27,445 nucleotides of DNA from an uncultured Candidatus Bathyarchaeia archaeon (lineage in GTDB: Archaea; Thermoproteota; Bathyarchaeia; Bathyarchaeales; Bathyarchaeaceae). The notes beneath the pieces were generated by a model. That model did no database searches and was not told the origin of the DNA. It saw nothing but the letters and a program-made list of their open reading frames with translations. The stretch is taken from positions 1 to 27,445 of the forward strand of contig CAYLSJ010000003.1 in NCBI GenBank assembly GCA_964386655.1, written 5' to 3'. The translations under genes and the position numbers were made by a program. How positions within the stretch are numbered: the first letter of the stretch is position 1; each line of letters opens with the position of its first letter. This document shows positions 1-27,231 of this stretch, piece after piece.

Positions 1-97
1 TGCGAATGGCAGCCTTGTTTTCTACATGAACTCTCAGATACGCCTGTTTGCAGCCACAGCCCTTCAACTGCTCCAAAGCAAACTGCACGAGCGCGCG
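1..97 (-). pseudogene. 5'-truncated GNAT acetyltransferase remnant (3' end runs off the window)
   Basis: Minus frame 97->2 reads RALVQFALEQLKGCGCKQAYLRVHVENKAAIR. Residues VQF...AIR are 25/29 identical to the GNAT at the right end of the window. There is an in-frame TAG at 98-100 and no room for an N-terminal half before the MFS stop at 125. Confidence 0.75.
4..90 (+). repeat. Direct repeat, left copy (partner 27338-27424)
   Basis: Manual ungapped alignment gives 76/87 nt identical. Confidence 0.95.
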
Positions 98-100
98 CTA
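90..100. repeat. (GC)n palindrome copy 1, AGCGCGCGCTA
   Basis: Seen directly. The GNAT homology ends here. Confidence 0.85.
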
Positions 101-124
101 TACCCGTACCTTCCAGAATAGGTT

Positions 125-1255
125 TCAACGTTCTTGTTTTAGGGTATACAAAGAGAGCACCGAGAAAACCGTGAAGAAAATCCCTGACGCAGCGAATATT
201 GGCATATATCCTAAGGATTGGGCGACAAATCCGGCACCCAACACGGAAGAGAACTCAGCAAGCCTCACGGGTATGTGGAGCAATCCTATATCAACAGAGA
301 CAGTCACTCTATTGTCCGTGGCTCTAGCAATTATAGACTCGAAGAAGCCTAGTCCAAGGCCACTTGCGACAGCCAGTGATAAGAAAAGCGCAGGAAAGAA
401 GAAGCCTGAGCTTGCCAACAAAAATGTTGCAAACAAGGCGATTAGACTCTGAACTGCAACTCGTCCAATTTCTAACGGGACCTTTAAGGTGCAGATTGCC
501 ACCAAAAAAGAAACCACATTGAAAAGCATAAAGGCCATCCCTATTGAAATATAACCATATCCCAGTTTTTGAGCCATAAAAACTGGCAGGAGCAACGCTT
601 CAAGAGGATATAGCGCAAGGCTATAAAATAACATAGCACATGAGACAAGCCAGAATGTTTTACTCCTACCTCTCGGATCGAGCAAGGCGATTGCATTTAG
701 AATCTTTGGCTTCGAATTCCTTTTATTAGCGCGCCAAAGCAGCGCAGCAGGAATCCCTATGATAGATGACGCTACAATCAAAATGCCCAGCGTAAATGAA
801 AACCCAAGGTAAGCAATCCCAAGGCCCGATACGGCGCTACCGATAGCAAAGGACAACACTATGACAGCAGATATCCTTGTCGCTTCCTTTCCTTTTTGTT
901 TGGGTGACAATGAAAAGACTGCAGTTCTGTTCACTGCCCAATAGGAAGATTCTTTCACTGCTTCTACGATCTTTCCAAGAAGAAAGACAAAAGTGGAGTT
1001 TGCGAGAAAATATATTGTAGTCGAAAGAAGAGTTCCAGGCCAGTTCAATAGGATAAAGAAAGGAGCCCATCCCAGCTGATCTGCAACTGCGGCAAACAAT
1101 AACCGGACAAAAAGGAATACTAGAGGTAGAATAGATATGACGAGGCCAATCTCTGCCAAATTGACGTTTCTCTCCAAAAGCAACAATGGGATTGTTAATG
1201 CAAGTCCTCCTGATACGAAATAGTTGAGGAATGTTATTACAACTATTCTCTTCAT
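125..1255 (-). CDS. MFS transporter (376 aa)
   Basis: About 12 hydrophobic segments in a 6+6 arrangement, a degenerate motif A (AAVADQLGW), and a GGAAGG SD-like site upstream of the ATG. Confidence 0.85.
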   Translation of the reverse strand: MKRIVVITFLNYFVSGGLALTIPLLLLERNVNLAEIGLVISILPLVFLFVRLLFAAVADQLGWAPFFILLNWPGTLLSTTIYFLANSTFVFLLGKIVEAVKESSYWAVNRTAVFSLSPKQKGKEATRISAVIVLSFAIGSAVSGLGIAYLGFSFTLGILIVASSIIGIPAALLWRANKRNSKPKILNAIALLDPRGRSKTFWLVSCAMLFYSLALYPLEALLLPVFMAQKLGYGYISIGMAFMLFNVVSFLVAICTLKVPLEIGRVAVQSLIALFATFLLASSGFFFPALFLSLAVASGLGLGFFESIIARATDNRVTVSVDIGLLHIPVRLAEFSSVLGAGFVAQSLGYMPIFAASGIFFTVFSVLSLYTLKQER

Positions 1256-1336
1256 CTACCCTTCCGCCAACATATAGTGGAGTGATATAGATCTATTTTT
1301 GATTGCCTTTTAGATTTGGCAGCGTCTTGAAATTAG

Positions 1337-1346
1337 TAGCGCGCTA
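1337..1346. repeat. (GC)n palindrome copy 2, TAGCGCGCTA
   Basis: Perfect 10-bp palindrome in the divergent intergenic region between the two MFS genes. Confidence 0.75.
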
Positions 1347-1501
1347 GTGAGATTTCGATATGTCAAGGCGCCCACACTCAAACGAAGCTTAACTCATCCA
1401 CATGATAAGACAGAATACCCTGTGTTGATGTGATGGAAGATAAGCAAGCGTCATATAGAGTTTCTTTAAATCATTAAGACTAAGCTAAGAAGGGTTTGAC
1501 T

Positions 1502-2713
1502 ATGTTAAGGCACGTCGGCAATTGGCTGAAAAAGGTTTTGGCGTTTAAAGGCAACATTCGAACCCTATCCATAACCTCATTGGTAGGAGGAACATCCCTT
1601 ATCCTGCTGAGAGTCACACTGCAACCCTTTGTCTTAAGCTTAGGAGTCTCCATGGCCTTCGTTGGGCTTCTTGAAACTTTTGGAGGTCGAGGCGGAGTGA
1701 TTACATCGCTTATACAACCTTTTGCTGGCTGGCTTTCCGATAGAAAAGGAAGAAGATTATTCGTCATTCTAGGAAGCGCCTTTTCATTCATAGCCTTGAC
1801 CTTTAGTGTTTTTGCAAGTCATTTTCAGATGTGGATATGGCTGGCTCCTGCCCTAATGGCGTTGGGGTTATCTGGAATAAGTCTGCCAGCGGCTGACTCA
1901 ACTGCAGCAGAATCTGTGGAGATAAACGAAAGAAGCATGGCATTTAGTGTCATAATGTTTTTTTCGTTACTTCCTGGAATATTCGCCTCTGTCCTTGGGG
2001 GTTTCATCGCAGATAAATTCGGCTTCACCTCTGTGTTTCTGTTAGGAGCAGTTCTGCAAGTTTTCAATTTTATCTTGATTTGGTTTCTTGTTAAAGAAAC
2101 ATTGCAAACCTATTCCAGAATAAACTTTTCAGAGCTAGTAAAATCTTTCAAATCGCTTTTGACTCCAATCAAGAATTTGAGAGGCTTCTATATTGCAATC
2201 ACTTCTGACTCATTCTTTTGGGCGATAGGCGCCGCAATACTCTCTGGGCTTCTTCGCAAAACATATAATTTCTCGAATTTTCAGCTGGGTATGATGTCAA
2301 GCATATTGTTTGTTTCCTCAGCCTGCTCTCAGCTACCAATGGGCCTATTAGTTAATAGGTATGGATGCAAGAAGCTGTTGCTGCTTTCAGAAATTATCGG
2401 AATTCTAATGATGGCAGGATGGTTGACGTTTTCCAGTTTCGAAGCCTTCGCCTTTCTTCAGATTCTCATGGGCTTGGTCGTCACAACATGGGTTCCTGCA
2501 ATAAAAACATTTTTGGCGAATAGCGTTCCAGAAGAGAGTAGAGCAGAGGCTTTAGGGAAGCTAGCAGCTTTTAGGGGTTTAGTTGGATTTCCTGCGCCTT
2601 ATTTAGGAGGCTTGCTCTATGACACGATGGGGTTCGCGGCGCCGATAACAGCTGGTCTCATTGGCGTAATATTCACGCTGATCCTCATTTTCCTACTTGT
2701 GCATGATCCGTAA
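1502..2713 (+). CDS. MFS transporter (about 403 aa; ATG 1502 preferred over TTG 1496)
   Basis: Motif A GWLSDRKGRR, its C-half repeat GLLVNRYGCK, and about 12 TM segments. Confidence 0.9.
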   Translation: MLRHVGNWLKKVLAFKGNIRTLSITSLVGGTSLILLRVTLQPFVLSLGVSMAFVGLLETFGGRGGVITSLIQPFAGWLSDRKGRRLFVILGSAFSFIALTFSVFASHFQMWIWLAPALMALGLSGISLPAADSTAAESVEINERSMAFSVIMFFSLLPGIFASVLGGFIADKFGFTSVFLLGAVLQVFNFILIWFLVKETLQTYSRINFSELVKSFKSLLTPIKNLRGFYIAITSDSFFWAIGAAILSGLLRKTYNFSNFQLGMMSSILFVSSACSQLPMGLLVNRYGCKKLLLLSEIIGILMMAGWLTFSSFEAFAFLQILMGLVVTTWVPAIKTFLANSVPEESRAEALGKLAAFRGLVGFPAPYLGGLLYDTMGFAAPITAGLIGVIFTLILIFLLVHDP

Positions 2714-2793
2714 GAACCCTTTCTTGAAGCGTGCGAAGAGATCAGTGTCATCGGGGCTTGAGGTGCGCGAGGCAGACTCTCTAAGCCCTGTTC

Positions 2794-4581
2794 TTAAGCT
2801 TCACTGAGCTTCATGTACTTCTTGAAGAATTCCATCATCCTCTTGTATGAGTCAATACGATTTTCAAGTCGCCTAAACATATGACCTTCGTCTGGGTATA
2901 TCTTGTATTCAAACGTTTTTCCATGCTTCTTAAGAAGATCGATTACTTGATAAGCCTCTGTGACAGGGCATCTTGGATCTTTAGCTCCATGAAGTATGAG
3001 GACGGGAGCCTTAATTCTATCAAGGAAGTAAATTGGCGATCTGTCATGATAGAACTCTGGATTGCTTTCAGGTGTGCCCACTTTCTGAGCGTCAGAGAAC
3101 TTGAGGTATTCCCTTTCTGTCTCGTACTCGGTTTTCCAGTTGAAGAAGCCAACCATAGTGACTCCTGCAGCCCAAACATCAGGATACTTTGTCAAGGCAA
3201 TCATAGCCATGAAGCCGCCGTAGCTTCCGCCATATATCCCTATTCTATCAGGGTCTGCAAGTCCCGAGTCTTTCAGATAGTTAGTTGCTGCCACAACATC
3301 CATGAGGTCTCCTCCGCCAAGGTCTTTGTCGCTCATGCGCAGAAACCTGCGACCATAGCCCGTGCTGCCCCTGAAGTTTGGAGATATAACTACGAATCCA
3401 TTAGAAACCAAGAACTGAAAGTACGGGTTCCAAATGTTCATGACTTGAGCCTCAGGTCCTCCATGAGGTACAACTAAAGCAGGCGCTTTTCTTGCTCCAA
3501 CTCTTATGGGCGTATAAATCCAAGCTGGAACCTCTAATCCATCTAGTGACTTGTATCTGACGACTTTAGGTTCTGCAAGCTCTTTTCTGTCAACCTCATT
3601 CCATAGAGACACAGTTATTTGTTCAAGCTTTCCAGTCAAATCCACTGTCCAGATATCTGGCGGGTTTTTCGGACCTGAATAGAGAAAGAAAGCCTTGTCG
3701 CCTTTTAGGCTCCATGCTGGGAATGTACAGACTCCTTCATTGAAACCTAATTGTTGCGTTTTAGCACCCTTTAGAGGTTTAACCTTCAGCAGCAGATTTC
3801 CTTCGATGTTTTCCGTGAAGGCCATCTTAGAAGCATCTGGCGACCACGTGGGAGAACTCTTCTCAAAAGATGTTTTCTCAAACCATTGCTCCTTTTCATT
3901 TTCCAGATTGTATACACAGACATTGTGGAAGTTGTCGACGTTTGATGTAAACGCCAGTTTTGCGCCATCTGGAGACCATGGATCTTGTCCGATTCCGATT
4001 TCGCCTCTTGGATGACTCACAATTTTCTTCGACACTTTATCTTTCATGTCCAGTAACCAGAGGCTTCGATTTATGAAGCCTCGAAGGAAAGCAGCGTATC
4101 TACCGTTGGGTGATAACGAATGCAATAATGCTGGTTCTTCGCCTTCGGTCAATCTTTCGATTTCGCCTGTTTCCGCGGAAAGCCTAAATAGATTCAGGTT
4201 GTCTCCGCCTCTGTTGGATATAAAAACAATCCACTTGCCGTCGGGAGTCCACCTTGGGCTGTGATTGTCGTGAGGGTCATTTGTTAACCTAGAGGGTTTG
4301 CCACCGTCTGCGTGAATAGTGAAAATGTCGAAATTTTCATCACCAGCTCTGTCAGAAACATAGGCAATTTGCTTGCCGTTCGGCGACCATCTCGGTTCTA
4401 AAGCTGACTCTGGTCCTTCTGTAAGTTTGCGGACTTCTTCGCTTCTAAGATCCTTTATGTATATGTCCCATTTGCCCTCTTTATTCCACGAAAACGCTAC
4501 TTTATTTCCATCAGAGGATACATCAAATTGGAAAACCTGTGGTACTCGAGTTAAGGCTTCAAGAGAAAGAACTTTAGTCAT
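2794..4581 (-). CDS. S9 family serine peptidase (acylaminoacyl/dipeptidyl-peptidase-like, S9C-type) with N-terminal PD40/TolB-like beta-propeller
   Basis: Repeats of P.WSPDG/WSPNG, nucleophile GGSYGG, Asp in HGAKDPRC, His in DEGHMF. No signal peptide. SD GAGGTGAGG at 4584-4592 (minus). Confidence 0.93.
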   Translation of the reverse strand: MTKVLSLEALTRVPQVFQFDVSSDGNKVAFSWNKEGKWDIYIKDLRSEEVRKLTEGPESALEPRWSPNGKQIAYVSDRAGDENFDIFTIHADGGKPSRLTNDPHDNHSPRWTPDGKWIVFISNRGGDNLNLFRLSAETGEIERLTEGEEPALLHSLSPNGRYAAFLRGFINRSLWLLDMKDKVSKKIVSHPRGEIGIGQDPWSPDGAKLAFTSNVDNFHNVCVYNLENEKEQWFEKTSFEKSSPTWSPDASKMAFTENIEGNLLLKVKPLKGAKTQQLGFNEGVCTFPAWSLKGDKAFFLYSGPKNPPDIWTVDLTGKLEQITVSLWNEVDRKELAEPKVVRYKSLDGLEVPAWIYTPIRVGARKAPALVVPHGGPEAQVMNIWNPYFQFLVSNGFVVISPNFRGSTGYGRRFLRMSDKDLGGGDLMDVVAATNYLKDSGLADPDRIGIYGGSYGGFMAMIALTKYPDVWAAGVTMVGFFNWKTEYETEREYLKFSDAQKVGTPESNPEFYHDRSPIYFLDRIKAPVLILHGAKDPRCPVTEAYQVIDLLKKHGKTFEYKIYPDEGHMFRRLENRIDSYKRMMEFFKKYMKLSEA

Positions 4582-4715
4582 TTCCTCACCTCATGCGTGT
4601 TTACTTACAGCCTAGGCTTTAAAAGTCTTTATTTGGGTTCTTGCTCCGGGTAGCAAGAAAGATTTATCCACAAAAATCGTGGCTATATGATTGATTGTTA
4701 AAGGTGAGCTTTCAA
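4582..4715. promoter_or_regulatory. Divergent promoter region for the S9 and M14 peptidase genes
   Basis: Minus-strand AAAGACTTTTAAAG (about 4617-4630), plus-strand AAGAAAGATTTAT (4655-4667), and SD sites on both sides (GAGGTGAGG; AGGTGA at 4702-4707). Confidence 0.55.
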
Positions 4716-6425
4716 ATGAGTGAAGAAAACGAGTTTGATTTCAACCACTACTTCAAATACGAAGAATTGACTTTGTTTCTCAAAAAAATGGAGGAAAAAC
4801 ACGCGGGTATTGCCAAGCTACACAGCCTTTGCAAAAGTAGTACGGGCAGAGATGTATGGCTCCTTGAAATAACTAACTTTGAAACTGGACTTGGAAGAGA
4901 CAAGCCCGGTTACTACATTGATGGAAACACTCACGCCAGCGAGGTCGCGGGCTCCATGGTTTGTCTTTACACGATTCGGCACCTGCTAACAACATATGGG
5001 AAAGACGACTTTGTGAAAGAGCTTCTGAACTCTAAAGTTATATACGTTCTACCCAGAATCGATGTAGACGGAGCCGAAGTATTTCTCACAACACCTCAAG
5101 TCTGGTTAGGAACTGCGAAATTCTACCCCTTCGCTGAAGAGGAATGGGGAAGAAGAGAGGGGCTTTATGGAGAAGACGTGAATGGAGACGGCTACATTAC
5201 CCAAATGAGAATTAAAGATCCAAATGGCGACTGGAAAATCTCAGACAAGGATCCAAGGCTCATGATTAAGCGGCGTCCAGAGGAAACTGGAGGCTCCTAT
5301 TATAAGGTCTATTTGGAAGGGTTGATACTCAATTATAGAGGAGATGAAATCAAGATAGCCCCAGCAAAGTATGGAATGAACTTGAACAGAAATTTTCCCG
5401 GCGATTGGGTTCCTGAGAACGTTCAACCTGGAAGCGGGCTTGTCCCCATCTCAGAACCAGAGGTAAGGGCTGTTGTGGATTTCTGGCTTAGCCATCCTAA
5501 CATTGGAGGCATGGTGACTTATCACACTCATGGAGGAGTGATTGTTAGAGCGTTTGACAACAAGCCTGATTCAGAGTTTATCGAGAAAGATCTTGTTCTC
5601 TTCAAGACAATTGGTGCAATGGGTACCGAGATTACTGGTTACCCAGATGTTTCTAGTTTCGAAGAGTTCACCCGTGATAAGAAGAAGCCTCGGCACGGAT
5701 GCACAGATGGCTGGACCTATCTAAGCCGAGGCATTCCAGGTTTTTGCTTGGAACTTTGGGACCTAGCAAAACATTCCGGTCTAGGTGGCTTCAAGGAGAG
5801 GGGAGGAGTCTATTTCAGATTGGATGCGTTGAAAGAGGAAGATGCCCTTAAGCCTCTTCTTTGGTTGGACAAAGAGCTGAACGGACAAGGTTTCAGCAAC
5901 TGGCATTCGTTCAAGCATCCTCAACTTGGAGATGTGGAGATAGGTGGTTGGAGTATGAAGTTTACTTGGAGGAATCCTCCGGAGAGGTTCTTAGGAGAAG
6001 AATGTAAAAGAGTATTTATGTTTCCTCTAAGACATGCGTCTCTACTACCCCTAGTTAAGATAACGAGTTCAAAAGCAATCAAAGTTGCTCAAGAAGTCTT
6101 CAGAATAGAGATGATAGTAGAAAATCTAGGCTTCCTTCCAACAAACATTTCCGAACAAGCTGTTCAAGCTAATGCAGTCAAGCCCGTTGTTGCCTATATC
6201 GGATTAAACGAAGACGCGAGTCTTCTCATCGGTCGAGAATGGGTTGAAATAGGACATTTGAAAGGCTTGTTTGATAAGCTTCCAGAACTGCCAGCGCCAA
6301 CAATGGAAGAGGGTTCAAAAAAGAAAATCGAATGGATAGTGAAGGCGGTGAAATCTAAGAAAGTTAAGTTGACTGTGCAGTCGGAAAAAGGAGGCACAGA
6401 CACCAAAGAGGTGCAATTAGAGTAA
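4716..6425 (+). CDS. M14 zinc carboxypeptidase family protein (start likely ATG 4716)
   Basis: Zn motif GNTHASE (HxxE), NLNRNF, YHTHG third ligand, candidate catalytic Glu in LELW. No signal peptide. Confidence 0.9.
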   Translation: MSEENEFDFNHYFKYEELTLFLKKMEEKHAGIAKLHSLCKSSTGRDVWLLEITNFETGLGRDKPGYYIDGNTHASEVAGSMVCLYTIRHLLTTYGKDDFVKELLNSKVIYVLPRIDVDGAEVFLTTPQVWLGTAKFYPFAEEEWGRREGLYGEDVNGDGYITQMRIKDPNGDWKISDKDPRLMIKRRPEETGGSYYKVYLEGLILNYRGDEIKIAPAKYGMNLNRNFPGDWVPENVQPGSGLVPISEPEVRAVVDFWLSHPNIGGMVTYHTHGGVIVRAFDNKPDSEFIEKDLVLFKTIGAMGTEITGYPDVSSFEEFTRDKKKPRHGCTDGWTYLSRGIPGFCLELWDLAKHSGLGGFKERGGVYFRLDALKEEDALKPLLWLDKELNGQGFSNWHSFKHPQLGDVEIGGWSMKFTWRNPPERFLGEECKRVFMFPLRHASLLPLVKITSSKAIKVAQEVFRIEMIVENLGFLPTNISEQAVQANAVKPVVAYIGLNEDASLLIGREWVEIGHLKGLFDKLPELPAPTMEEGSKKKIEWIVKAVKSKKVKLTVQSEKGGTDTKEVQLE

Positions 6426-6589
6426 ACCCCCTCTTGTTCTTCTACAAAGTTCTAGAGAGTTTGTTCAACTGCTCCCGTTTATAAACATACATCTGCGAAT
6501 TGAATATTCTGCAATCTGCTAAATGAGATGTTGCTCCGAATTTCCTACCGTCCTAGAAATATCTTCATTCGGAATAGTTATCCCCATCC

Positions 6590-6603
6590 AAAAACCTTTA
6601 AAA
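6590..6603 (+). promoter_or_regulatory. BRE/TATA-like box
   Basis: AAAAACCTTTAAAA about 30 nt upstream of ATG 6633. Confidence 0.55.
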
Positions 6604-6632
6604 CCTGTTTCCAATCCTAATTGTCGGGAACC

Positions 6633-7106
6633 ATGCAAAAGAGCTCACTTTGGTCTCTTGGAAGAATTTTTCTGAGAGTGTGCGCCTTTGGAGTTGTCAT
6701 ATTCATAATCTTGAATTTAGCTGCGCGCACTTCTGGGGTAGGCTACACTACTCAGTACAGACTCGTATCTGGAGAAGCTTTGGTGTATGGAAAAAGTGGG
6801 GGACCACGTACAGCTGAGATGAATGTCATTTCCTTAGAAATCTATTACAACCCTCTACTCTTTCCAATGAGCCACTTGTCAGGAAATGGCAAATATTCTG
6901 GCATAACCTGGACACTTCAATATCCTGAGGAAAATGTGGAAGAAGTCGCAGCATTGATAAGAGTATTTCGGGAATTGCCAATTAATCTGCCTTATCTTTT
7001 CACGGTTAGTTTTGTATCTGGTTTAATCCTAGAAGAACTAGCGTTCCATTTATCAAAAGGGCGGCTTGAAAGGAAAGGAGTTATGAGTAAAGGAGAGCTT
7101 GTCTAG
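6633..7106 (+). CDS. Hypothetical membrane protein (two TM segments; start likely ATG 6633)
   Basis: Hydrophobic segments near the N- and C-termini, a promoter-like box upstream, and no competing ORF. Confidence 0.7.
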   Translation: MQKSSLWSLGRIFLRVCAFGVVIFIILNLAARTSGVGYTTQYRLVSGEALVYGKSGGPRTAEMNVISLEIYYNPLLFPMSHLSGNGKYSGITWTLQYPEENVEEVAALIRVFRELPINLPYLFTVSFVSGLILEELAFHLSKGRLERKGVMSKGELV

Positions 7107-7317
7107 CACTCCTTAGGACCATGTTCAATAATTAGTTACCAAACGATCGTCTTTTAAGAAAACCTTTGGAGCAACCACTTGCATAAGAAGGTTTATAGTG
7201 AGAATTATCTGCTAGGACGGATTCTCCATTATAAAGATTAAGATTCTGATGGTTGAATTTAACCGATCATAAGGTCGAAAGGTTGATAAAATCGCAGAGC
7301 CTATATTTTTCTTAGCA

Positions 7318-8001: not shown

Positions 8002-8147
8002 ATATTAAGCTGAACAAAGGCTGTATGTGCGAAGCCTTGATTCTTGATTTTCAGCTTCAACTAGGTCTGAATCTGTCAAATAGTAAGGTATAAAAAGATA
8101 TATTTCATATATGATGCCTCACATTCGAGATATGGCGGAGAAGGTTT

Positions 8148-10202: not shown

Positions 10203-10350
10203 TTAGTTGCCTATCATAGCTTCTTTGAAGCGGGATAATAGATTTTAGAGTTGCCATGGCGAACAGCATTCTAAGCTGTTTTCAGTGGTAAAGTGCGTGT
10301 ATGAGGAGGCTGACTTTAGCTTTTGACCAAATGCCAGACACCTAGAGAAT

Positions 10351-10370
10351 AGTTCCAGAAAGTTTAAAAT
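10351..10370 (+). promoter_or_regulatory. AGTTCCAGAAAG motif + TATA
   Basis: AGTTCCAGAAAG-TTTAAAAT. The 12-mer is identical at 16229-16240. Confidence 0.6.
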
Positions 10371-13784: not shown

Positions 13785-16052
13785 ATGGAAAGGAAACGCC
13801 ATATGAAAGTTTTGGTTTTTACGTGGCTTCTCTTGGGCTTCTTCGTTTCAAGTTTTATAGATATTCGAACAGGCAATTCGCTCCCTGGAACAACAATTCT
13901 TGTGGCTCCTTCAGAAGTTACAAAAGCTGTTGGTGAAACCTTCGACATTAAGGTAAATATCTCTGATGTAACTAATCTTTATGGCTTGGACATTCAATTT
14001 TGGTGGGACTCAACCCTTTTAAAATACATTAGCAAGAATGTTAGGATTCCTAAAAGTACTTACTCTGACGGTGTTCTCTGGTCTCCATTCTTGAAATACA
14101 AGGACGTGGTCGATGCGGCAGCTGGTACGTACTGGCTTGCAGCATCCTCTTTCGGGGTCGCCAAGTCATTTAATGGTTCGGGAACAGCGTTCATCATGAC
14201 CTTCGAAGTCTTAAGAGAGGGCGCCTGTTATCTACACTTTACAAGTACTGGTCTAGGGGACAAGCCTGCTTCACCAGGTGAACCTTCAGAGCCAATTCCC
14301 CATGAACGCGTAGACGGTAAGTTCAGCACAGCTGGGGCTGGCTTGGCGCCTTTTGCAAGTTTTACTTTTGAGCCAGCGAAAGTCTTTGTGAACAAGACAA
14401 CCGTCACTTTCAACGCAACGGATAGTTATGATCTTGACCCGAGTGGAAACGTAACCCTCTATATGTGGAATTTTGGAGACGGAAATAAAACAAACACGCC
14501 GGATCCCATAATAACCCATGTTTACACTCTGGGCGGGATAGATTATTCAGCTGCCTTACAGGTTAAAGATAACAACAACAGCTTAAGCTTTCCCTACGTT
14601 AAATCCGTGCTTGTAATAGACTATTCCGATGTAAAAATAGATGAAGTCGAAGCTTCGCCACTCTCTGTGTCTAGAGGCTCAAATGTGACAATCGACGTCA
14701 CAGTCAGCAACATCGGCATCACAAGCCCACCCACCTTCAACGTCACAACCTACTACAACAAAACAGCAACAGAATGGATAAAAATCGATACACGACGTGT
14801 GGAAATTCTAACCAAAGGCACCACTACGACTTTGACATTCAATTGGACAACTCGAGTCACCCCCGACGCTTATTATAAGATAAAGGCAAACACAACCATA
14901 ATCGAAAACGACTATGACCTCAGCAACAACGCTGCGGAGAGCGACACATTAGTATATGTAATGCCAGGTTATCCTGTAGCCAGCTTCATCTATGCACCAG
15001 ATATTCCAGTACCCAGAGAACAAGTGACTTTTGATGCTCGAGCCAGCTCTGATCCAGATGGAAAAATTACCGAATACAGATGGAATTTCGGAGATGGAGC
15101 TAAAGAGAACACTGCCAACCCAATTGTAACTCATGCTTACGAGACTCCGGGCACCTACAATGTGACCTTAACAGTTGTTGACGATGATGTAGAACAACTA
15201 AAAGGGTCTTCCACTATGTGGGTGCAAGTATCCGTATACTATTCATTAGACGTCACAATTGATGTTGGATCAATACACTTCGCAGGTGAGGCAGCTGAAT
15301 TTTACATCAAGACATCAAGGTTAGGCAAACTCTTCAACGCCACGGAAATCACGGCAGTTCTTTATTATTCATACGGAACCAAATATTTGGACCTAAGTGA
15401 AAACATACGAATCATAAAAACTGGGGTCTACAGGTTACCGTACGTTCTGCCGTCAGACGCTTTAACGGGCACATACACACTTGTTGTCCAAGCAAGCTAT
15501 CTTAACCTTGAAGGAACCGCTCTCAAGAGCTTTCTGGTAAGCCAAACGTTAACTGGTTGGAACCCACTGCTGCTCAGCATCAACGGAACTGTGGCAACAA
15601 TAAAAACCGACGTAGGTCTGGTTCAGATGAAACTGGAAGACATCAACGCAACATTAATCGAGATTATTGTTGATAGCGAGGGCGAAATCCTTGCGAAGAT
15701 AGACTCGGCAGTTGGAACAATAATGGCAGAATTGAGCACAATTAACGCAACTCTAACCGATATAATTGTTGATAGCGAGGGCGAAATCCTTGCGGAGATA
15801 GACACTGCGCTGGGAACGGTAACGGCACAACTGGATACAATCAATTCTAGGGTCGTTGCCATTGACGGCAATGTTATCACTATAAAGACTGATCTTGGCA
15901 CAATCAAAACCACAACAAGCGATGTACAAACCTCTGTTGCAGGCGTCCAAACAACCGCCTCAACTTCTCTCTATGTGACTTCAGCGTTTTCGGCTATTGC
16001 AGCAGTGGTTGCAACCGTAGTTTTACTTCTATTGAGAAAAAAGCCTAAATAA
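13785..16052 (+). CDS. Membrane-anchored surface protein: signal - cohesin-like - PKD - CARDB - PKD - Ig-like - helical repeat stalk - TM
   Basis: Cohesin-like domain at about 13890-14330 (GETFDIKVNISDVTNLYGLDIQFWWDSTLL..FNGSGTAFIMTFEV), two PKD motifs W(N)FGDG, a 33-aa repeat stalk, and C-terminal TM + RKKPK. Confidence 0.85.
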   Translation: MERKRHMKVLVFTWLLLGFFVSSFIDIRTGNSLPGTTILVAPSEVTKAVGETFDIKVNISDVTNLYGLDIQFWWDSTLLKYISKNVRIPKSTYSDGVLWSPFLKYKDVVDAAAGTYWLAASSFGVAKSFNGSGTAFIMTFEVLREGACYLHFTSTGLGDKPASPGEPSEPIPHERVDGKFSTAGAGLAPFASFTFEPAKVFVNKTTVTFNATDSYDLDPSGNVTLYMWNFGDGNKTNTPDPIITHVYTLGGIDYSAALQVKDNNNSLSFPYVKSVLVIDYSDVKIDEVEASPLSVSRGSNVTIDVTVSNIGITSPPTFNVTTYYNKTATEWIKIDTRRVEILTKGTTTTLTFNWTTRVTPDAYYKIKANTTIIENDYDLSNNAAESDTLVYVMPGYPVASFIYAPDIPVPREQVTFDARASSDPDGKITEYRWNFGDGAKENTANPIVTHAYETPGTYNVTLTVVDDDVEQLKGSSTMWVQVSVYYSLDVTIDVGSIHFAGEAAEFYIKTSRLGKLFNATEITAVLYYSYGTKYLDLSENIRIIKTGVYRLPYVLPSDALTGTYTLVVQASYLNLEGTALKSFLVSQTLTGWNPLLLSINGTVATIKTDVGLVQMKLEDINATLIEIIVDSEGEILAKIDSAVGTIMAELSTINATLTDIIVDSEGEILAEIDTALGTVTAQLDTINSRVVAIDGNVITIKTDLGTIKTTTSDVQTSVAGVQTTASTSLYVTSAFSAIAAVVATVVLLLLRKKPK
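15642..15839 (+). repeat. Intragenic 99-bp (33-aa) tandem repeat x2
   Basis: The 30-mer ATTGTTGATAGCGAGGGCGAAATCCTTGCG is identical at 15666 and 15765. Units are INATL.(E/D)IIVDSEGEILA.ID.A.GT..A.L.T. Confidence 0.92.
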
Positions 16053-16076: not shown

Positions 16077-16228
16077 GTTACCGAGCAAAGCCTATTCAAC
16101 TTTACAGTTAGACTCCCTGGATAGTGCACTTTTGCGTGCATTTCCACAAATTCACCAGCCAGCTTGTCTTTGCATGACTTTTAGCTTTCACCATCTAATA
16201 CTATTGCGTTTCCTTTGCTATAGAGAAA

Positions 16229-16250
16229 AGTTCCAGAAAGCCTTAAATTA
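16229..16250 (+). promoter_or_regulatory. AGTTCCAGAAAG motif + TATA upstream of the substrate-binding protein
   Basis: AGTTCCAGAAAG-CCTTAAATTA, with SD GGGGAG before ATG 16303. Confidence 0.6.
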
Positions 16251-18751: not shown

Positions 18752-18765
18752 TTCCTCTTTTTTTT
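18752..18765 (+). terminator. Oligo-T terminator after the SBP gene
   Basis: TTCCTC + T8 (18758-18765). Confidence 0.6.
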
Positions 18766-18785
18766 GTGTATTTCTGCAAGAATTT

Positions 18786-18799
18786 AAACCTTAAATACC
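18786..18799 (+). promoter_or_regulatory. Candidate internal promoter for dppB
   Basis: AAACCTTAAATACC about 55-65 nt upstream of ATG 18852. Confidence 0.5.
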
Positions 18800-18851
18800 T
18801 CTTGTCTTAAAAGGCTTCACAGACCATCAAAGGAAAAGGTTGAGAGAGAAG

Positions 18852-19847: not shown

Positions 19848-19850
19848 CTG

Positions 19851-21461: not shown

Positions 21462-21638
21462 CAACTGTAGCGCTTGTCATCCCTAACTCAAAAGACCGAT
21501 TCTGTCATGTAGAAACCACCAATATCCTTTCTGTCAATTCATGATGCTTGAACGGCAGGTCACCAAAAACTTATTTAGCGAAATGTATTTCAACATATGT
21601 TCCAACTATTAACAAAACCATAACCCAAGGTAAATAGA

Positions 21639-22607
21639 ATGGCACTGCTTGAGGTCAACGATCTAGTAACTCATTATATTACGCTTAGGGGCTCAGTAAA
21701 AGCAGTTGACAAGATCAGTTTCCAAATAGAGAAAGGAGAAGCAATGGGATTAGTTGGAGAATCAGGTTGCGGCAAAACCACTGTTGCCTTGTCTCTCCTT
21801 AAAATTCTGCCTTCAGGTGGAAGAATCATCAATGGCAAAATTCTCTTCAAAGGCGTAGACATAGTCCAACTTGAAGAAGAAGAAATGCGAAAGAGCATCA
21901 GGTGGAAAGGAATATCACTTATATTCCAAGGAGCCATGAACGCGCTCACTCCCGTTTACAAAATTGGATATCAAATTATCGAAGCGATTAGAATACACGA
22001 ACCCGATGTGGACAAGAAAGAGGCCACAGAGAGAGCGAAAAAACTTCTCGAAATGGTCGGAGTCGAACCTAAAAGAATTGACAACTACCCCCACGAATTT
22101 AGTGGCGGAATGAAACAACGCGCAATGATCGCTATGGCCCTAGCATGCCATCCTGATCTTTTGATTGCAGATGAACCCGCAACAGCCTTAGACGTAGTTG
22201 TTCAAGCGCAGGTTCTTGAACTTATCAAAGCGCTTAAGGACAAGTTGCACTTATCAATGATGTTGATAACACACGACTTGTCAATTGTTGCTGAGACGTG
22301 TGAAAAGATTGCCGTTATGTATGCTGGAAAAATCGCGGAATACGGAGATATAATCACTATTTTTAAGGAACCTTTGCATCCGTATGCTCAAGGTTTACTG
22401 GAAGTATTCCCAAATATTAAGGCGCAGAGAAGTCGTGCTATGTCCATACCAGGTTCTCCACCAGATTTATTATCACCTCCCAGTGGCTGTCGATTTCATC
22501 CGCGTTGCAAGTACAGAATGGAAATTTGCAGTAAGAAGGAGCCAGCAGTCACTGAAGTCAAAAGAGGGCTACATTATGCCGCCTGCCACCTCTTATACAA
22601 AGCCTGA
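21639..22607 (+). CDS. dppD: Peptide ABC transporter ATPase, DppD/OppD-type
   Basis: Walker [10 protein letters not shown], signature FSGGMKQR, Walker B LLIADEP, HPY, and C-terminal GCRFHPRC Cys cluster. Confidence 0.95.
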
Positions 22608-22620
22608 TGAAGGTATAAAA

Positions 22621-23616
22621 ATGCAAGAAACAGTTGTAAAAGCCGTTGAATTAACAAAATGGTTTCCCGTGAGAATGGGCTTTTTTGGAAGCTTGTTTTT
22701 CAAACAAGAGCAGTATGTCCGAGCAGTAGATGGAATAGACCTAGAAATCAAAAGAGGCGAGATTTTTGGACTTGCGGGAGAAAGCGGTAGCGGAAAAACG
22801 ACTACTGGAAGGCTGCTTGTCAAACTTATTGAACCTACTCAAGGGAAAATTTTTTTCCATGGGCAAGATATAACGGCTCTCTCAGAAAGCTCGTTTAAAC
22901 CTCTACGTCGAAAAATCCAGATAGTATTCCAAGACCCTTACGAGTCACTTAACCCTAGAATGACTGTCTTCAACATTATCGCTGAACCATTGCTACTGCA
23001 ACAGATTGCTAGCGGGGCTCAAGTTGAAGAGAGAGTTCATAAAGTTCTGGAAGAGGTGGAATTAACTCCCGCTCGGGAATTTCTCTACCGATACCCTCAC
23101 GAGCTCAGTGGAGGCCAAAGGCAACGTGTAGCGACAGCAAGAGCCTTAGCTTTGAACCCAGAGTTTATTGTTGCCGATGAACCTGTTTCCATGTTAGATG
23201 TTTCTGTGAGAGCAGAAGTTCTAAACCTGATGTTTCATTTAATGGAAAAATATAATGTGTCATTCTTGTACATCACCCACGACTTGGCATTAGCCCGTCA
23301 CATCTGCAATTCGATAGCCATTATGTATTTGGGCAGAATTATGGAAAAAGCTCCTACAGAAAAGATTGTGTACGAACCCCTGCATCCCTATACAAAAGTG
23401 CTTATCGCAGCGGTTCCAGTTCCTGATCCTACGGTAAGGCGTGTAAGAGCCATGGTTAAAGGGGAAATCCCAAGTTCAGTGAACCCCCCGTCTGGATGCA
23501 GGTTCCACACTAGGTGCCCAGAGTTCATTGGAGATATTTGCAAAACAAAAGAGCCGGTGTTAACCGATGTTGGCAGTGGACAATGTGTTGCATGCCACTT
23601 GTACTCTAAGCGATGA
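22621..23616 (+). CDS. dppF: Peptide ABC transporter ATPase, DppF/OppF-type (start ATG 22621, not 22384)
   Basis: Walker A GESGSGKTT, LSGGQRQR, IVADEP, HPY, GCRFHTRC. The ATG lies 13 nt after the dppD stop. Confidence 0.95.
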   Translation: MQETVVKAVELTKWFPVRMGFFGSLFFKQEQYVRAVDGIDLEIKRGEIFGLAGESGSGKTTTGRLLVKLIEPTQGKIFFHGQDITALSESSFKPLRRKIQIVFQDPYESLNPRMTVFNIIAEPLLLQQIASGAQVEERVHKVLEEVELTPAREFLYRYPHELSGGQRQRVATARALALNPEFIVADEPVSMLDVSVRAEVLNLMFHLMEKYNVSFLYITHDLALARHICNSIAIMYLGRIMEKAPTEKIVYEPLHPYTKVLIAAVPVPDPTVRRVRAMVKGEIPSSVNPPSGCRFHTRCPEFIGDICKTKEPVLTDVGSGQCVACHLYSKR

Positions 23617-23802
23617 AAGAACTATTCTTATCCTAAAGGAAGGAGCATCGAACGGAATCGGGAGTTACTGTAACATTCTGAACTTCTCTTAATGACTACA
23701 CATTTTTGAGTATGCCTTGATTTTGCGCTTTAGACGAGGCAGCTGGGTTTTTTCCTCTCTTTCTGATTCCATATGTCTTTGTGGTATTTAACCCTCGAAG
23801 AT

Positions 23803-23824
23803 AGTTCCATAAGTTTTAATTAAT
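23803..23824 (+). promoter_or_regulatory. AGTTCCATAAG motif variant + TATA
   Basis: AGTTCCATAAG-TTTTAATTAA about 35-45 nt upstream of ATG 23859. Confidence 0.5.
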
Positions 23825-23858
23825 TGTATTCCGAAAGTCTTCTTGGTCGTCGATTGAG

Positions 23859-24965
23859 ATGTTTCGGAAACTTACCTTAATCTGCGTCTTGTTACTGGCA
23901 GTAACACTATTGTTTAACGTAGGAGTCCAGGTGTGTATAAGCCAAGTCCCGAGAAATATCATGGTTTCTTTCGACGCTAAACTTGACGTATTCAGCCCTC
24001 AGCCTCCGCTGGACATATCTGTATGGTTCGAAGCTGAGGTTCTCTACGACGGTGAGCCAACGCATCCGACGCTGCCCGCAAACACAGTGACGTTGCAACT
24101 GCTAGTCAACGGTTCACTCGTGAATTCCTACCTGTATCCATACTCGTTACCAGTTGGTTCAAAATTCACTTACACTTACAAATGGGTTCCCACGGCGGAG
24201 GGTAAGTATAATCTTACGGCCTACGTGCCTCCACTGGCTTGGGAGACAATACGGGATGATAACGTTGAATGGGACGTTGTGCCAATATTCGAGCCGATTG
24301 TGAACCCTCGTGTTTATGTTGATCCGCCAAGCATTACGGTATACAAGGGCGAAATCTTCACAGCTAGAGTAAATATTGCCAATCTCTCTGACCTTTACGT
24401 TCGCGACCAGACCATGTACGATATTCCTCTTGGAAATTTCTACGGCGCTGATTTCTACTTCTATTACGACTCTTCAAAATTAGCTGTTCTTGATTTCACT
24501 ATGCCTATCTGGTGGATTTTTGCGGACAATTCAACCGCTGGAACCTTCTATGTCCTGGGAACATCGTATCCTCCTGAGCCACCATTGAACAACTATCCTT
24601 ATCCTGGAAGCACCACTGTTTTAGAGATAACGTTCAGGGCAACCGCTACAGGAATTGTTTCTCTAAGCCTTCCCATCGGAAACATGATGCTTGTAGATAA
24701 AGACGGAAGATACATCGGAAGAGACGCAATATGGGAACCAACCTATCTGTCTGCTACCTATGGATCTGTGAGGATTAAGATAGTAGGCGATGTGAACGGC
24801 GATGGCATCGTAGATTTCCGTGATCTGTATGCACTCGGTAGAGCTTATGGAAGTGTGTCAGGCTCAGGGGACAACTGGAACAGAGAATGCGACTTTAACA
24901 GAGACAACAAAGTGGATTATCTTGATCTATCAGCCTTACTTAAGAACTACGGCAAAACAGAGTAA
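23859..24965 (+). CDS. Secreted protein: signal - CARDB/Ig-like - cohesin-like - dockerin
   Basis: Cohesin-like domain at about 24303-24780 (VYVDPPSIT..GEIFTARVNIANL..IPLGNFYGADFYFYYDSSKL..VLEITFRA). Dockerin from 24786 has two intact Ca loops, DVNGDGIVDFRD and DFNRDNKVDYLD. Confidence 0.85.
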   Translation: MFRKLTLICVLLLAVTLLFNVGVQVCISQVPRNIMVSFDAKLDVFSPQPPLDISVWFEAEVLYDGEPTHPTLPANTVTLQLLVNGSLVNSYLYPYSLPVGSKFTYTYKWVPTAEGKYNLTAYVPPLAWETIRDDNVEWDVVPIFEPIVNPRVYVDPPSITVYKGEIFTARVNIANLSDLYVRDQTMYDIPLGNFYGADFYFYYDSSKLAVLDFTMPIWWIFADNSTAGTFYVLGTSYPPEPPLNNYPYPGSTTVLEITFRATATGIVSLSLPIGNMMLVDKDGRYIGRDAIWEPTYLSATYGSVRIKIVGDVNGDGIVDFRDLYALGRAYGSVSGSGDNWNRECDFNRDNKVDYLDLSALLKNYGKTE

Positions 24966-24973
24966 CACCACAG

Positions 24974-24984
24974 TTCCTCTTTTT
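24974..24984 (+). terminator. Oligo-T candidate terminator
   Basis: TTCCTCTTTTT, the same context as after the SBP gene. Confidence 0.45.
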
Positions 24985-25084
24985 CTAATATAATCCTTAG
25001 ATTGATAAGTAGAAAAATGCAGCTTACATGGGATACTGAGTAAAGCTTAGGCTTAAGAAACGAATCGATCAGAATCAGCCAAAT

Positions 25085-25216
25085 CTATAGAGCAATCTTT
25101 CTGCTGTCGAGGCCCCTTGTAAAATACCCAAACTCGTTTCCAACTTCTCTTAACTGTTCTGCTGTAAAAACTGGTCCATCTTTGCAAACACGATATCTAC
25201 CTACGACACATGTTCC
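25085..25216 (-). pseudogene. pyrK: 3' remnant of a PyrK-like (dihydroorotate dehydrogenase electron-transfer subunit / hydrogenase gamma family) gene
   Basis: Minus frame GTCVVGRYRVCKDGPVFTAEQLREVGNEFGYFTRGLDSRKIAL*. CKDGPVF is the hallmark of the DHODB Fe-S domain. The upstream Cys ligands and FAD/NAD domains are absent. This remnant is not in the ORF track. Confidence 0.75.
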
Positions 25217-25221
25217 ACGAG

Positions 25222-25233
25222 TAGCGCGCGCTA
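25222..25233. repeat. (GC)n palindrome copy 3, TAGCGCGCGCTA
   Basis: Perfect 12-bp palindrome between the pyrK-like remnant and the peptidase stop codon. Confidence 0.9.
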
Positions 25234-25239
25234 TAGCAT

Positions 25240-27120
25240 CTATGGTTTCATGGCAAGCGCTTTGTAAACGAACGCCATTATGTCTGAATATTCCTTTATC
25301 TTTGTTGTTGGCGTTGCACCCGAGTGTCCACTTTTTGTTTCAACTCTCAGAAGTGGAGATGTTCCTTTCTCTTCAAGTTTTGCAGTGAACTTGAAGGCGT
25401 GTGCTGGATGAACGCGGTCATCGTGTGCCCCTGTATACAGCATCGTTTTGGGATAGCCTCTTCTAGTGATGTTGTGATACGGCGAGTACTTCAGGAGAAA
25501 CTCTCTGTCCTTTGGATTTTCCGGGTCACCATATTCCGACATCCAAGCTTTTCCGATGTGAAGTTTATGATACCTGAGCATGTCGAGCACGGGATATCCA
25601 ATCAGTGCACCGTCGAGTAGCTCAGGATGCTGGGTCAGGACTGCTCCGATTAGCAGACCGCCGTTGCTAACACCGAAACCCACAGTCTTCGACCCTTTAT
25701 TCCTGTAATATTCAAGGACCGCCATGAAATCGTCGAACACATTCTGTTTCTTCTCTCGCATTCCTTTTCTGTGCCATGCCTCACCATATTCTGTGCCTCC
25801 CCTGAGATTCGCTACTGCAAAGGTTCCACCGTTCTCTAAGAATGGAATGACATAAGAAAAGTATCTAGGCGTCAGAGAGAAAGCAAACCCACCGTACCCC
25901 CAGACTAAAACTCGGCTTGCTGTTCTGCCCTTCTTCCCAACGTTAAACACATGAATTCTGGTCGAGTCCTTCGATTTAACCCACATGTCTTTCACTTCGA
26001 AGGCACCGCGAATCTCCCTCGAGTCTACAGTTGTTAACGCATCTCTTTCCAAGCAGTAGATCCTGTAGGGGATAAGGAAAGACTCATAAATGAATACACA
26101 TTTTTCACCATCGGAATCAAGAGACCCAATAGTTCCAGCGGGCTCAGGCTTCAGTTCGCTGTGTTTTCTGCCACTTAGATCATAAGTTCTTAAGATTGAA
26201 GCTGCGTCAACTAGGTATGTGGCAGCTATTTTTTCATTTGCAATAACTGCTTCCTGCAGCGGATAAGGCTGTTCGCCAACGATTTCGTCGATCTCGCCGT
26301 TGTTGCTTAGGCCCAGTATTCGCCCCATTCCCTTCTTGTCAAATGACGTCGCATAATACTTGCCATGAACGTAGTCAATTGGCCATGTCATGAAGTCTCC
26401 TTTGCCATAAACCAGACTCCAGCCTTCGGGCTTCTTGATGTGCCCTGCGTAGATGTCGCTTCTTGTCCAACCATAAGCGACCATCAGCAGTGCTCTTGAG
26501 CTTTCTCGGCTCTTCTTAAGCGAAATGAAATAGGATGTTGGAAGACCTCGACCAAAAACTAGCTCATCTGTGCCGTTCTCTCTTAGATGAATCCTCATTG
26601 CAGGGGAAGCAACGCCGTCAGGAGTCTTGTCTTTCTGATAGAATCTTCCGTAGAGATATTTCTCTTCCTCAAGCCATACCAAGTCGCCGAACATGCCTTT
26701 CATTTCATCCAGAGTCTCTTTAGACTCTGTTTTCATTATCTTCAAGATTCCCTCATCTGAACCGCCAAGAGAATAGGTGAAAGCGAATAGATCTCCTTCT
26801 TCTGAAGCATAGAACTGCTGTATTACTGCGTCTTTGCCCAGTTCTGCGGAGTTCACTAATTCCGTGATGTCGCCCTTCTGGTGCAATAAGTTGAGCTTGA
26901 AGTTCCTGCTGTCTCGTAGAAGTACGAAGTGTCCACTAGGTCTGGTCTTCGCCATCAAAACGTAGGGAATCGCATAGCACCTCCTGATTCTGCTCTCCAG
27001 CTTCTTAGAAATCGGTGAAAGGAGCTTCCGTGTGGCATCATTCCTCTTGGAAAACCATTTCACCACTTTCGGGTCTTCAAGATTCTCCAACCACAGGTAA
27101 GGGTCATGGTCTTCAGTCAT
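25240..27120 (-). CDS. Prolyl oligopeptidase (S9A); start likely ATG 27120
   Basis: N-terminal DPYLWLE, nucleophile GVSNGGLL, Asp in HDDRVHP, His in SGHSG, NLRGGTEYGEAWH. No signal peptide. GGGGTTGA SD-like site upstream. Confidence 0.95.
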   Translation of the reverse strand: MTEDHDPYLWLENLEDPKVVKWFSKRNDATRKLLSPISKKLESRIRRCYAIPYVLMAKTRPSGHFVLLRDSRNFKLNLLHQKGDITELVNSAELGKDAVIQQFYASEEGDLFAFTYSLGGSDEGILKIMKTESKETLDEMKGMFGDLVWLEEEKYLYGRFYQKDKTPDGVASPAMRIHLRENGTDELVFGRGLPTSYFISLKKSRESSRALLMVAYGWTRSDIYAGHIKKPEGWSLVYGKGDFMTWPIDYVHGKYYATSFDKKGMGRILGLSNNGEIDEIVGEQPYPLQEAVIANEKIAATYLVDAASILRTYDLSGRKHSELKPEPAGTIGSLDSDGEKCVFIYESFLIPYRIYCLERDALTTVDSREIRGAFEVKDMWVKSKDSTRIHVFNVGKKGRTASRVLVWGYGGFAFSLTPRYFSYVIPFLENGGTFAVANLRGGTEYGEAWHRKGMREKKQNVFDDFMAVLEYYRNKGSKTVGFGVSNGGLLIGAVLTQHPELLDGALIGYPVLDMLRYHKLHIGKAWMSEYGDPENPKDREFLLKYSPYHNITRRGYPKTMLYTGAHDDRVHPAHAFKFTAKLEEKGTSPLLRVETKSGHSGATPTTKIKEYSDIMAFVYKALAMKP

Positions 27121-27219
27121 ACAGGTCAACCCCAAATCTAGGAAGCCTGAGCCTTTAAGAGTTGTTCAGGAACGTTTGCGACGCATAGTACACTTTTGGA
27201 GAGCACAAACGCGTTGTAA

Positions 27220-27231
27220 TAGCGCGCGCTA
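27220..27231. repeat. (GC)n palindrome copy 4, TAGCGCGCGCTA
   Basis: Perfect 12-bp palindrome between the GNAT stop and the peptidase promoter. A near-variant TAGCGCGGCTTA lies at 27250-27261. Confidence 0.9.

Follow-up and report, generated by a model that had tools for sequence, protein, structure and literature searches.

Alternating CG or CA/TG tracts that form Z-DNA are known to provoke double-strand breaks and deletions in eukaryotic cells (PMC6957503). We analyzed a 27,445-bp stretch of DNA, the whole of one contig (hereafter the window) from an uncultured member of the Bathyarchaeia, in which four short palindromes with an alternating-GC core, written TA(GC)nTA in the original prediction, lie beside intact genes. 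Similar to Z-DNA and other non-B fragile sites, these tracts are uninterrupted, GC-dominated runs of alternating purines and pyrimidines, and in the deletions found here one end lies at a tract, the opposite end is arbitrarily placed, and microhomology is scarce. Three of the window copies (copies 1, 3, and 4) and one tract in a relative (contig L092, position 9321) coincide exactly with gene-truncating junctions. Unlike the experimentally studied examples, the tracts are only 6-10 bp long and have accumulated rather than been purged. Their length is borderline for a structural transition, as CG repeats need at least roughly 10-12 bp to flip to Z-DNA at physiological superhelicity. With slightly less than even confidence, we favor the reading that persistent alternating-GC tracts at gene boundaries are hotspots or preferred end-points of illegitimate recombination.

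Other described families of short prokaryotic palindromes resemble these tracts in part. The cyanobacterial HIP1 element (GCGATCGC) is likewise short, GC-rich, and palindromic and shows strong over-representation in a single lineage, but HIP1 is abundant inside genes and the tracts here are not. REP/BIME elements share the restriction to intergenic DNA, often just past stop codons. However, REPs are imperfect palindromes of 20-40 nucleotides (nt) that carry a GTAG/GGAG head, form a stable hairpin, and are mobilised by RAYT proteins, whereas the tract unit here measures 10-14 nt, folds into a weak hairpin, and has no conserved head, and no RAYT-like gene was seen. No description of such tracts in Bathyarchaeota or other archaea was found in the literature.

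The window palindromes and their lineage-wide class

The four copies and the genes and gene remnants around them were located as follows.

90-100, no strand: copy 1 (M1), AGCGCGCGCTA, a (GC)4 tract 26 nt past the MFS1 stop codon, joined directly to a 5'-truncated GNAT fragment
1-89, minus strand: GNAT-L, the first 89 nt of a GNAT acetyltransferase 3' fragment, whose last 49 codons run past the left end of the contig
125-1255, minus strand: MFS1, an intact major-facilitator transporter gene (Pfam MFS_1) between copies 1 and 2
1337-1346, no strand: copy 2 (M2), TAGCGCGCTA, a (GC)3 tract 82 nt upstream of the MFS1 start codon
25085-25219, minus strand: pyrK remnant, the last 44 codons and stop codon of a dihydroorotate dehydrogenase electron-transfer subunit gene
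25222-25233, no strand: copy 3 (M3), TAGCGCGCGCTA, 6 nt past the S9b stop codon, at a deletion junction with the pyrK remnant
25240-27120, minus strand: S9b, an intact prolyl oligopeptidase gene (Pfam Peptidase_S9_N and Peptidase_S9) between copies 3 and 4
27220-27231, no strand: copy 4 (M4), TAGCGCGCGCTA, 85-96 nt upstream of the S9b start codon, where a GNAT/methyltransferase locus is fused to the S9b promoter
27219-27244, plus strand: methyltransferase remnant, the last 4-5 codons and stop codon of a convergent gene, overlapping copy 4 (from alignment of the GNAT-R and GNAT-L contexts)
27235-27445, minus strand: GNAT-R 3' end and flank, belonging to an intact gene with its stop codon at 27273-27275

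A motif search of the window recovered all four copies where they had first been reported. The decamer AGCGCGCGCT was found at 90-99, 25223-25232, and 27221-27230, and none of 100 dinucleotide-preserving shuffles of the window reached three matches (mean 0.01), which agrees with the chance expectation of about 0.01 in the original prediction. TAGCGCGCTA occurs once, at 1337-1346 (expected 0.01). The shorter hexamer GCGCGC was counted 10 times against 2.35 expected. Three of these hexamers lie inside open reading frames (ORFs; positions 729, 6723, and 8791), whereas the full TA(GC)nTA form, as stated earlier, has zero coding occurrences in the window. The flanks described for pairs of copies, CACGAG...CTATA for copies 1 and 3 and AGTAGCGCG for copies 2 and 3, were found as quoted. 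All four copies flank two intact minus-strand genes, MFS1 (copies 1 and 2) and S9b (copies 3 and 4), and the bracketing geometry is alike, with the upstream copy 82-85 nt before the ATG and the downstream copy 6-26 nt past the stop codon. Directly beyond each downstream copy (1 and 3), a co-oriented gene remnant without its 5' part adjoins the tract.

The same junctions were encountered in at least 14 independent contigs from more than 10 samples. Copies 3 and 4 are spanned by L001 and L089 (JGI), copy 2 by L082-L088 (Logan, JGI), and copies 1 and 2 by L166-L171 (JGI, ENA). Samples, centres, and assemblers differ among them, and each is collinear with the window (99.4-99.9% identity). Because the junctions recur in independent contigs and the 12-nt repeat is well under assembler k-mer sizes, assembly chimeras are excluded.

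Related Bathyarchaeia contigs were gathered via the GNAT, S9b, and MFS1 proteins, and their ORFs were called crudely (at least 90 amino acids, greedy, non-overlapping). The resulting tract statistics cover approximately 34-38 kb of clade intergenic DNA from a handful of related populations, with hexamer expectations taken from first-order Markov composition. From this comparison, the four copies can be assigned to a lineage-specific WW(GC)3-5WW class (W being A or T) in the intergenic DNA of one Bathyarchaeia clade. The related contigs carry many alternating-GC runs of 6-10 nt: 37 fall within 38 kb of intergenic sequence, compared with 19 in the 185 kb that is coding (Fisher p = 6e-16). GCGCGC was the most over-represented intergenic hexamer in the clade (57 observed vs 5.2 expected, 11-fold) and CGCGCG the second (31 observed vs 4.0 expected); the observed/expected ratios in coding DNA were 0.84 and 0.54, respectively. 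Other over-represented intergenic hexamers (CGCGCA, GCGCAC, CACACG, and ACACGC) are likewise alternating purine-pyrimidine. No intergenic enrichment was found in the clade for (AT)3, (AC)3, (AG)3, or other GC-only palindromes, nor was the GC-run enrichment seen in control loci (ratio 1.1 for bacterial loci, 1.3 Mb in total, and 0.6 for other metagenome loci). Such accumulation is unusual because prokaryotes generally suppress GC6/GC8 runs (PMC4060949).

The sequence around the tracts carries little further information. The first two flanking positions are 80% and 69% A/T, and composition returns to background from the third position outward. The window copies are (GC)3-4, and tracts in relatives reach (GC)5. 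Only window copies 2-4 have TA on either side; the flanks of copy 1 and of the tracts in relatives are GA, AT, GT, AA, or CA. Tracts were found in tandem, convergent, and divergent intergenic regions. Approximately 7 of 34 intergenic tracts lie at most 10 nt from a stop codon, and many of the rest precede a start codon by 50-150 nt. No larger conserved element (miniature inverted-repeat transposable element, small RNA, or binding arms) was found around them, as the flank profile is flat past 2 nt and Rfam gave no match. A stable hairpin was not found either: the predicted fold of the 12-mer has a free energy of -1.2 kcal/mol, which was equalled or bettered by 193 of 200 shuffles, and a hairpin or cruciform was accordingly rejected as the basis of the motif. 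Beyond the clade, the closest GTDB relatives of the window S9 peptidase are Bathyarchaeia genomes at 60-67% identity, and a genome scan with S9b found neither the motif nor shared synteny in these distant members. When the window ORFs were searched in four distant relatives with tblastn, S9b alone was matched.

Several further observations concern the tract class itself. In L002, L003, and L163/L164, which belong to other Bathyarchaeia lineages, GCGCGC and CGCGCG are both absent from approximately 48 kb, against 4.7 and 3.2 expected in coding DNA. The relatives either hoard GC runs between genes or avoid them entirely, which may reflect a restriction-modification difference. A double tract, GCGCGCATGCGCGC, was noted directly at a stop codon in L091 (3208-3221) and L097 (8653-8665), and the two lineages differ by a 2-nt GG indel. 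Tracts can thus be compound and shift by small slippage steps.

Tracts at gene-truncating junctions

Copy 3 separates S9b from the end of pyrK. The remnant was recognised by Pfam PF10418 (DHODB_Fe-S_bind; profile positions 15-40 of 41, E = 1.4e-5), and 17 of 40 residues are identical to the PyrK C-terminus of L163, with an equal tail length. In L163/L164, whose S9b is 77% identical to that of the window, S9b is followed on one strand by approximately 1.3 kb, pyrD, and then a 293-amino-acid pyrK. Native pyrK sequence resumes at GTGGAACATGT beyond copy 3. Because L163/L164 retains S9b-pyrD-pyrK intact and the remnant matches the end of PyrK, copy 3 is read as a deletion of approximately 3 kb, and not as an insertion into pyrK. 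The ancestral S9b-pyrDK linkage is deduced from one lineage (L163/L164) together with the remnant, and pyrD or pyrK was not found near S9b in the loci of other relatives. Neither a proto-tract nor any tract-like sequence was found at the pyrK breakpoint in L163 DNA, and no tract follows S9b in L161-L165. The S9b protein is identical on L001 and L089. Relatives with S9b at 87% (L161) and 77% identity share with the window the ORF and approximately 80 nt upstream, and nothing more.

At copy 1, the 3' flank of MFS1 is connected to approximately codon 235 of GNAT. GNAT homology begins at TCGTGCAG, and the junction of TATAGCGCGCGC with TCGTGCAG was found in six independent contigs (L166-L171). GNAT-L is 87% identical to 27338-27424, which lies within the intact GNAT gene on the opposite side of the contig. 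A further 1 kb to the left is available from L166, where the remainder of the GNAT fragment ends in its stop codon and is followed by a flank of 43 nt and then by an intact convergent Methyltransf_11 gene. The genomic context of MFS1 orthologues at 80-87% identity differs between lineages. In two of them (L172 and L173, 84-86% identical), a (GC)3 run occupies the position of copy 1, just past or within the gene end, and the DNA downstream of MFS1 differs in all three lineages. The same tract position after MFS1 despite different neighbours suggests an old, pre-existing tract that was reused as a pivot.

Copy 4 joins the S9b promoter to the GNAT-R locus. The full 282-amino-acid GNAT-R is encoded at L089:205-1053, and an intact Methyltransf_11 gene lies at L166:1530-2447. 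L166:1350-1539 is 87% identical to window positions 27424-27235 (approximately 190 nt that begin within GNAT-R and extend to copy 4). The homology to the GNAT-L context continues into copy 4 itself (ATAGCGGCAAG vs ATAGCGCGCGCTAAG) and ends at the far edge of the tract, and the native ATAGCGGCAAGAAAACTGTGA of the methyltransferase context corresponds to ATAGCGCGCGCTAAGAAAAACTGTGA at copy 4. From this alignment, copy 4 overlies the last codons of a second, destroyed methyltransferase copy. Toward S9b, the homology to L161 (the 87% relative) breaks off 19 nt short of the tract.

Imperfect direct repeats of approximately 190 nt (87% identical) were also found on either side of the 27 kb that separates copy 4 from copy 1, and the two tracts form their inner ends. 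The repeats comprise the last 150 nt of the GNAT gene and its 3' flank (window 1-90 and 27235-27424; L166:1350-1539 and L089:902-1091). Both contig ends lie inside this repeat, which probably explains why the assembly stopped there. Such a layout, in which one end carries an intact GNAT and the opposite end a displaced 3' fragment, is that of an integrated island, and no integrase was seen. The repeat could have arisen when a circular element integrated by homologous recombination or through an old duplicative insertion, or it could mark an integrative island minus its integrase.

The fourth case of a tract beside a 3' remnant lies outside the window. At L092:9321, where TAGCGCGCGCGC meets ACACATTCTCAAATAA, the tract adjoins what is left of a small Cys-rich ORF, namely its last five codons; L089, L094, and L097 have this ORF intact upstream of GNAT. 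This site is independent of the three in the window. As a separate observation, the Cys-rich ORF lies directly upstream of a 282-289-amino-acid GNAT-domain protein in several lineages (L089:1-110, L094:9107-9347, and L173:7009-7473), and the similar 154-amino-acid gene of L173 is tagged DUF3795.

Copy 2 does not follow this pattern. The sequence at this position is TAGCGTGCTA in 11 of 14 population contigs and TAGCGCGCTA in the window, L084, and L085 alone. It lies within a conserved promoter/upstream region that can still be aligned with L172 and L173, the orthologous loci, which means that copy 2 does not mark a breakpoint. It reads as a decaying or chance-improved short tract. The proposal that the motif marks breakpoints is thus borne out at copies 1, 3, and 4 and not at polymorphic copy 2, and the original count of two copies at gene truncation points was right and understated, since copies 1, 3, and 4 each adjoin a gene remnant. 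The variation at copy 2 (1341/1342, TAGCGCGCTA vs TAGCGTGCTA, in L082-L088 and L166-L171) is the sole population polymorphism seen within a tract. It is a CpG-to-TpG difference, as deamination of 5-methylcytosine would be expected to produce, and is a hint of possible methylation at GCGC or CGCG sites.

A link between tracts and rearrangement was also seen in pairwise comparisons of contigs with at least 80% identity. Homology-block ends lay at most 10 nt from a tract in 14 of 76 cases (8 unique sites), compared with approximately 5% by a rough estimate for random intergenic positions. No (GC)4 or longer tract was spanned by homology on both sides, and the spanned runs were all (GC)3, varying by point substitution.

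If the tracts are recombination hotspots, a DNA break, replication stall, or template switch at a tract would come first, one flank would then be lost or exchanged, and the ends would be rejoined with little or no microhomology, leaving the tract at the junction. Repeated use would place tracts on both sides of intact genes, immediately next to 5'-truncated pieces of the genes that were once their neighbours. This reading accounts for the bracketed intact genes, the adjoining 3' remnants, the changing neighbours, and the length-dependent link to homology breaks. That the tract causes the breaks is what we infer, and the data equally allow it to be a mere marker. Possible causes of fragility include a non-B or Z-DNA propensity, the self-complementary and slippage-prone nature of the tract, a tract-specific nuclease, and template switching. 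Z-DNA formation is most typically associated with alternating GC. The earlier suggestion of a recombination hotspot or Z-DNA-prone fragile site is backed in its general idea by the comparison of related contigs; its hairpin component is not, given the weak fold.

Several points weigh against the hotspot reading. At ordinary supercoiling, 6-10 bp is little for a B-to-Z transition, and with a weak hairpin as well, any physical cause of fragility is conjectural. Copy 2, as described, is no breakpoint. Most homology ends lie away from tracts, such as the one just past the GNAT stop codon, and the tracts sit near gene ends, where homology tends to stop anyway, which makes the null expectation uncertain. 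At S9b and L092, the tract is confined to the rearranged lineage, and a repair scar fits this equally well. Finally, the statistics come from approximately 34 kb of clade intergenic DNA with crude ORF calls, and the source genome is represented by a 27-kb contig and approximately 2 kb of flanks.

Alternative explanations

Two rivals remain serious. The likelier of them, although in itself an unlikely explanation, is that the tracts are functional boundary cis-elements, such as the site of a DNA-binding protein, a boundary or insulator, or a 3'-end signal, and that breakpoints coincide with them since viable rearrangements end at gene boundaries. Such a function is compatible with fragility. 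It would suit the strong position bias near stop codons and 50-150 nt upstream of starts, the exclusion from coding sequence, the compact palindromic form with A/T flanks, and the tract position kept at the MFS1 3' end in three lineages. Yet a sequence-specific dimer site would hardly be expected to vary in run length (6-10 nt) and flanks as the tracts do, and divergent, convergent, and tandem regions all carry tracts. Copy 2 is freely polymorphic in the population, and the S9b orthologues at 87% and 77% identity lack tracts. An intrinsic terminator in particular would differ from the tracts in fold and sequence, as these have no stable hairpin and no T-run directly follows copies 1 or 3. The nucleotide-exact abutment of gene remnants is also left unexplained.

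Somewhat less likely again is that the tracts are repair scars, in which an alternating-GC filler was made at a rejoined double-strand break by a terminal-transferase or slippage polymerase, or by fold-back priming, with one tract for each rearrangement. The distribution at both S9b ends and L092, where tracts are confined to the rearranged lineage, is what such scars would produce, and copy 4 resembles an in-situ expansion of a native GCGGC, by 4 nt from ATAGCGGCAAG to ATAGCGCGCGCTAAG, exactly at the junction. The near-identity of the window junction copies to one another and the lack of homology across long tracts fit as well. The MFS1 tract, however, lies in the same place in three lineages with three neighbours, which favours one old tract over three fillers, and many tracts occupy ordinary intergenic regions with no remnant visible beside them. 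We know of no archaeal enzyme that adds alternating GC.

A bolder proposal, which we consider distinctly unlikely, is that the WW(GC)nWW tracts are the working sites of a putative archaeal cut-and-rejoin system at gene boundaries, formed by a tract-specific nuclease or recombinase or by a polymerase that inserts alternating GC during end joining. Each gene, together with its promoter, would then act as an exchangeable cassette, and the tracts would record the events.

We regard as improbable that the tracts are crossover sites of an unrecognised integron-like site-specific recombination that shuffles single-gene cassettes, with MFS1 and S9b each a cassette between two sites. As in integrons, single genes here are bounded by a recombination-associated palindrome right after the stop codon, which the tracts hug like attC sites, and gene contexts vary by lineage. 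The shared bracketing geometry of MFS1 and S9b (82-85 nt before the ATG and 6-26 nt past the stop), the GC-run bracketing of MFS1 in L172 and L173 beside different neighbours in every lineage, and the restriction of S9b homology to the ORF and approximately 80 nt upstream would all be expected of cassettes. Unlike integron cassettes, however, the genes carry their own upstream regions, and there is no 55-140-nt attC with paired R''/L'' and L'/R' boxes and no GTTRRRY core. No recombinase, integrase (such as the tyrosine-recombinase integrase IntI of integrons), or transposase domain was found by Pfam in the scanned window ORFs or in the flanking contigs L089 and L166, with four Opp permease/ATPase ORFs judged from the Pfam tags on the collinear L082 and from sequence. 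Unlike lox, dif, or att core sites, the 6-10-nt core lacks conserved inverted arms of approximately 11-13 bp; conservation ends at the two A/T bases and the run length is variable, and the earlier suggestion of a recombinase core site is not supported on these grounds. The S9b-pyrK linkage common to L163 makes copy 3 demonstrably a deletion rather than an insertion, partner breakpoints fall at arbitrary coding positions with no proto-site in pyrK, and the copy-2 region is conserved across the supposed cassette boundary. A simple cassette insertion into GNAT or pyrK was rejected for related reasons: the missing gene halves do not lie across the supposed cassettes, with no GNAT similarity visible by eye to the right of copy 2, and L163 makes the S9b-pyrDK linkage ancestral.

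Excision footprints of an IS630/Tc1-mariner-type element, consisting of a TA target duplication and a few bases of each inverted terminal repeat, were also suggested in the original prediction and appear very improbable. Three of the four window copies do read TA-(GC)n-TA, the motif is the perfect palindrome that joined inverted ends would leave, it is found where there has been local damage, and adjacent deletions are a known by-product of insertion-sequence activity. Against this, TA on both sides is confined to the window, with AT, GT, AA, GA, or CA in relatives, and the length varies in GC steps in the manner of a microsatellite. The usual footprint leaves 2-4 nt per end, and eight to ten element-derived bases would be longer. 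The tract after MFS1 also holds its position across three diverged lineages, and Pfam found no transposase or integrase among the scanned window ORFs.

Chance coincidence, or the assembly or amplification chimera raised in the original prediction, might be entertained for a short motif of which each copy is a single occurrence on a metagenomic contig, but is refuted for practical purposes by the shuffles (0 of 100 reach the observed count), the recurrence of the junctions in at least 14 contigs from various samples, centres, and assemblers, a repeat (12 nt) below k-mer sizes, and an enrichment that recurs in related contigs and is absent from controls.

Other features of the window and significance

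By Pfam, the window ORFs include two MFS transporters, two S9 peptidases, an M14 carboxypeptidase, an Opp-type solute-binding protein, five PKD/CARDB/cohesin/dockerin proteins, and two ORFs without a match. Rfam families and tRNA genes were not found in the window. Positions 2794-24965 form a peptide-scavenging island with the second S9 peptidase (Tricorn/PD40-type), the M14 carboxypeptidase, and an Opp-type ABC transporter whose solute-binding protein is unusually large (805 amino acids). Cohesin or dockerin domains are present in three of the island's five secreted PKD/CARDB proteins, an indication that a Bathyarchaeon may build a cellulosome-like cohesin-dockerin assembly. Within the 755-amino-acid cohesin/PKD gene, a 99-nt tandem duplication (15642-15839, 80% identical) encodes two 33-residue repeats near the C-terminus. 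A 20-27-nt motif, TAGAGAAWAGTTCCAGAAAG, was found at 10343-10362 and 16221-16240 and in weaker form at 23793-23819 (two exact matches vs 0.01 expected). It lies 40-60 nt upstream of the genes for a PKD protein, the Opp binding protein, and a dockerin protein, and is a candidate shared promoter or operator for secreted-protein and peptide-uptake genes.

Bathyarchaeia are abundant uncultured sediment archaea in which accessory gene content varies greatly between close lineages. An intergenic tract class that is 11-fold over-represented and lies nucleotide-exact at deletion and fusion junctions provides a testable handle on this reshuffling of gene order. The tracts could also be used to mark rearrangement scars and pseudogene remnants in the annotation of metagenome-assembled genomes. 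If the hotspot reading is true, they would represent a rare natural archaeal case of non-B-DNA-type instability shaping a genome.

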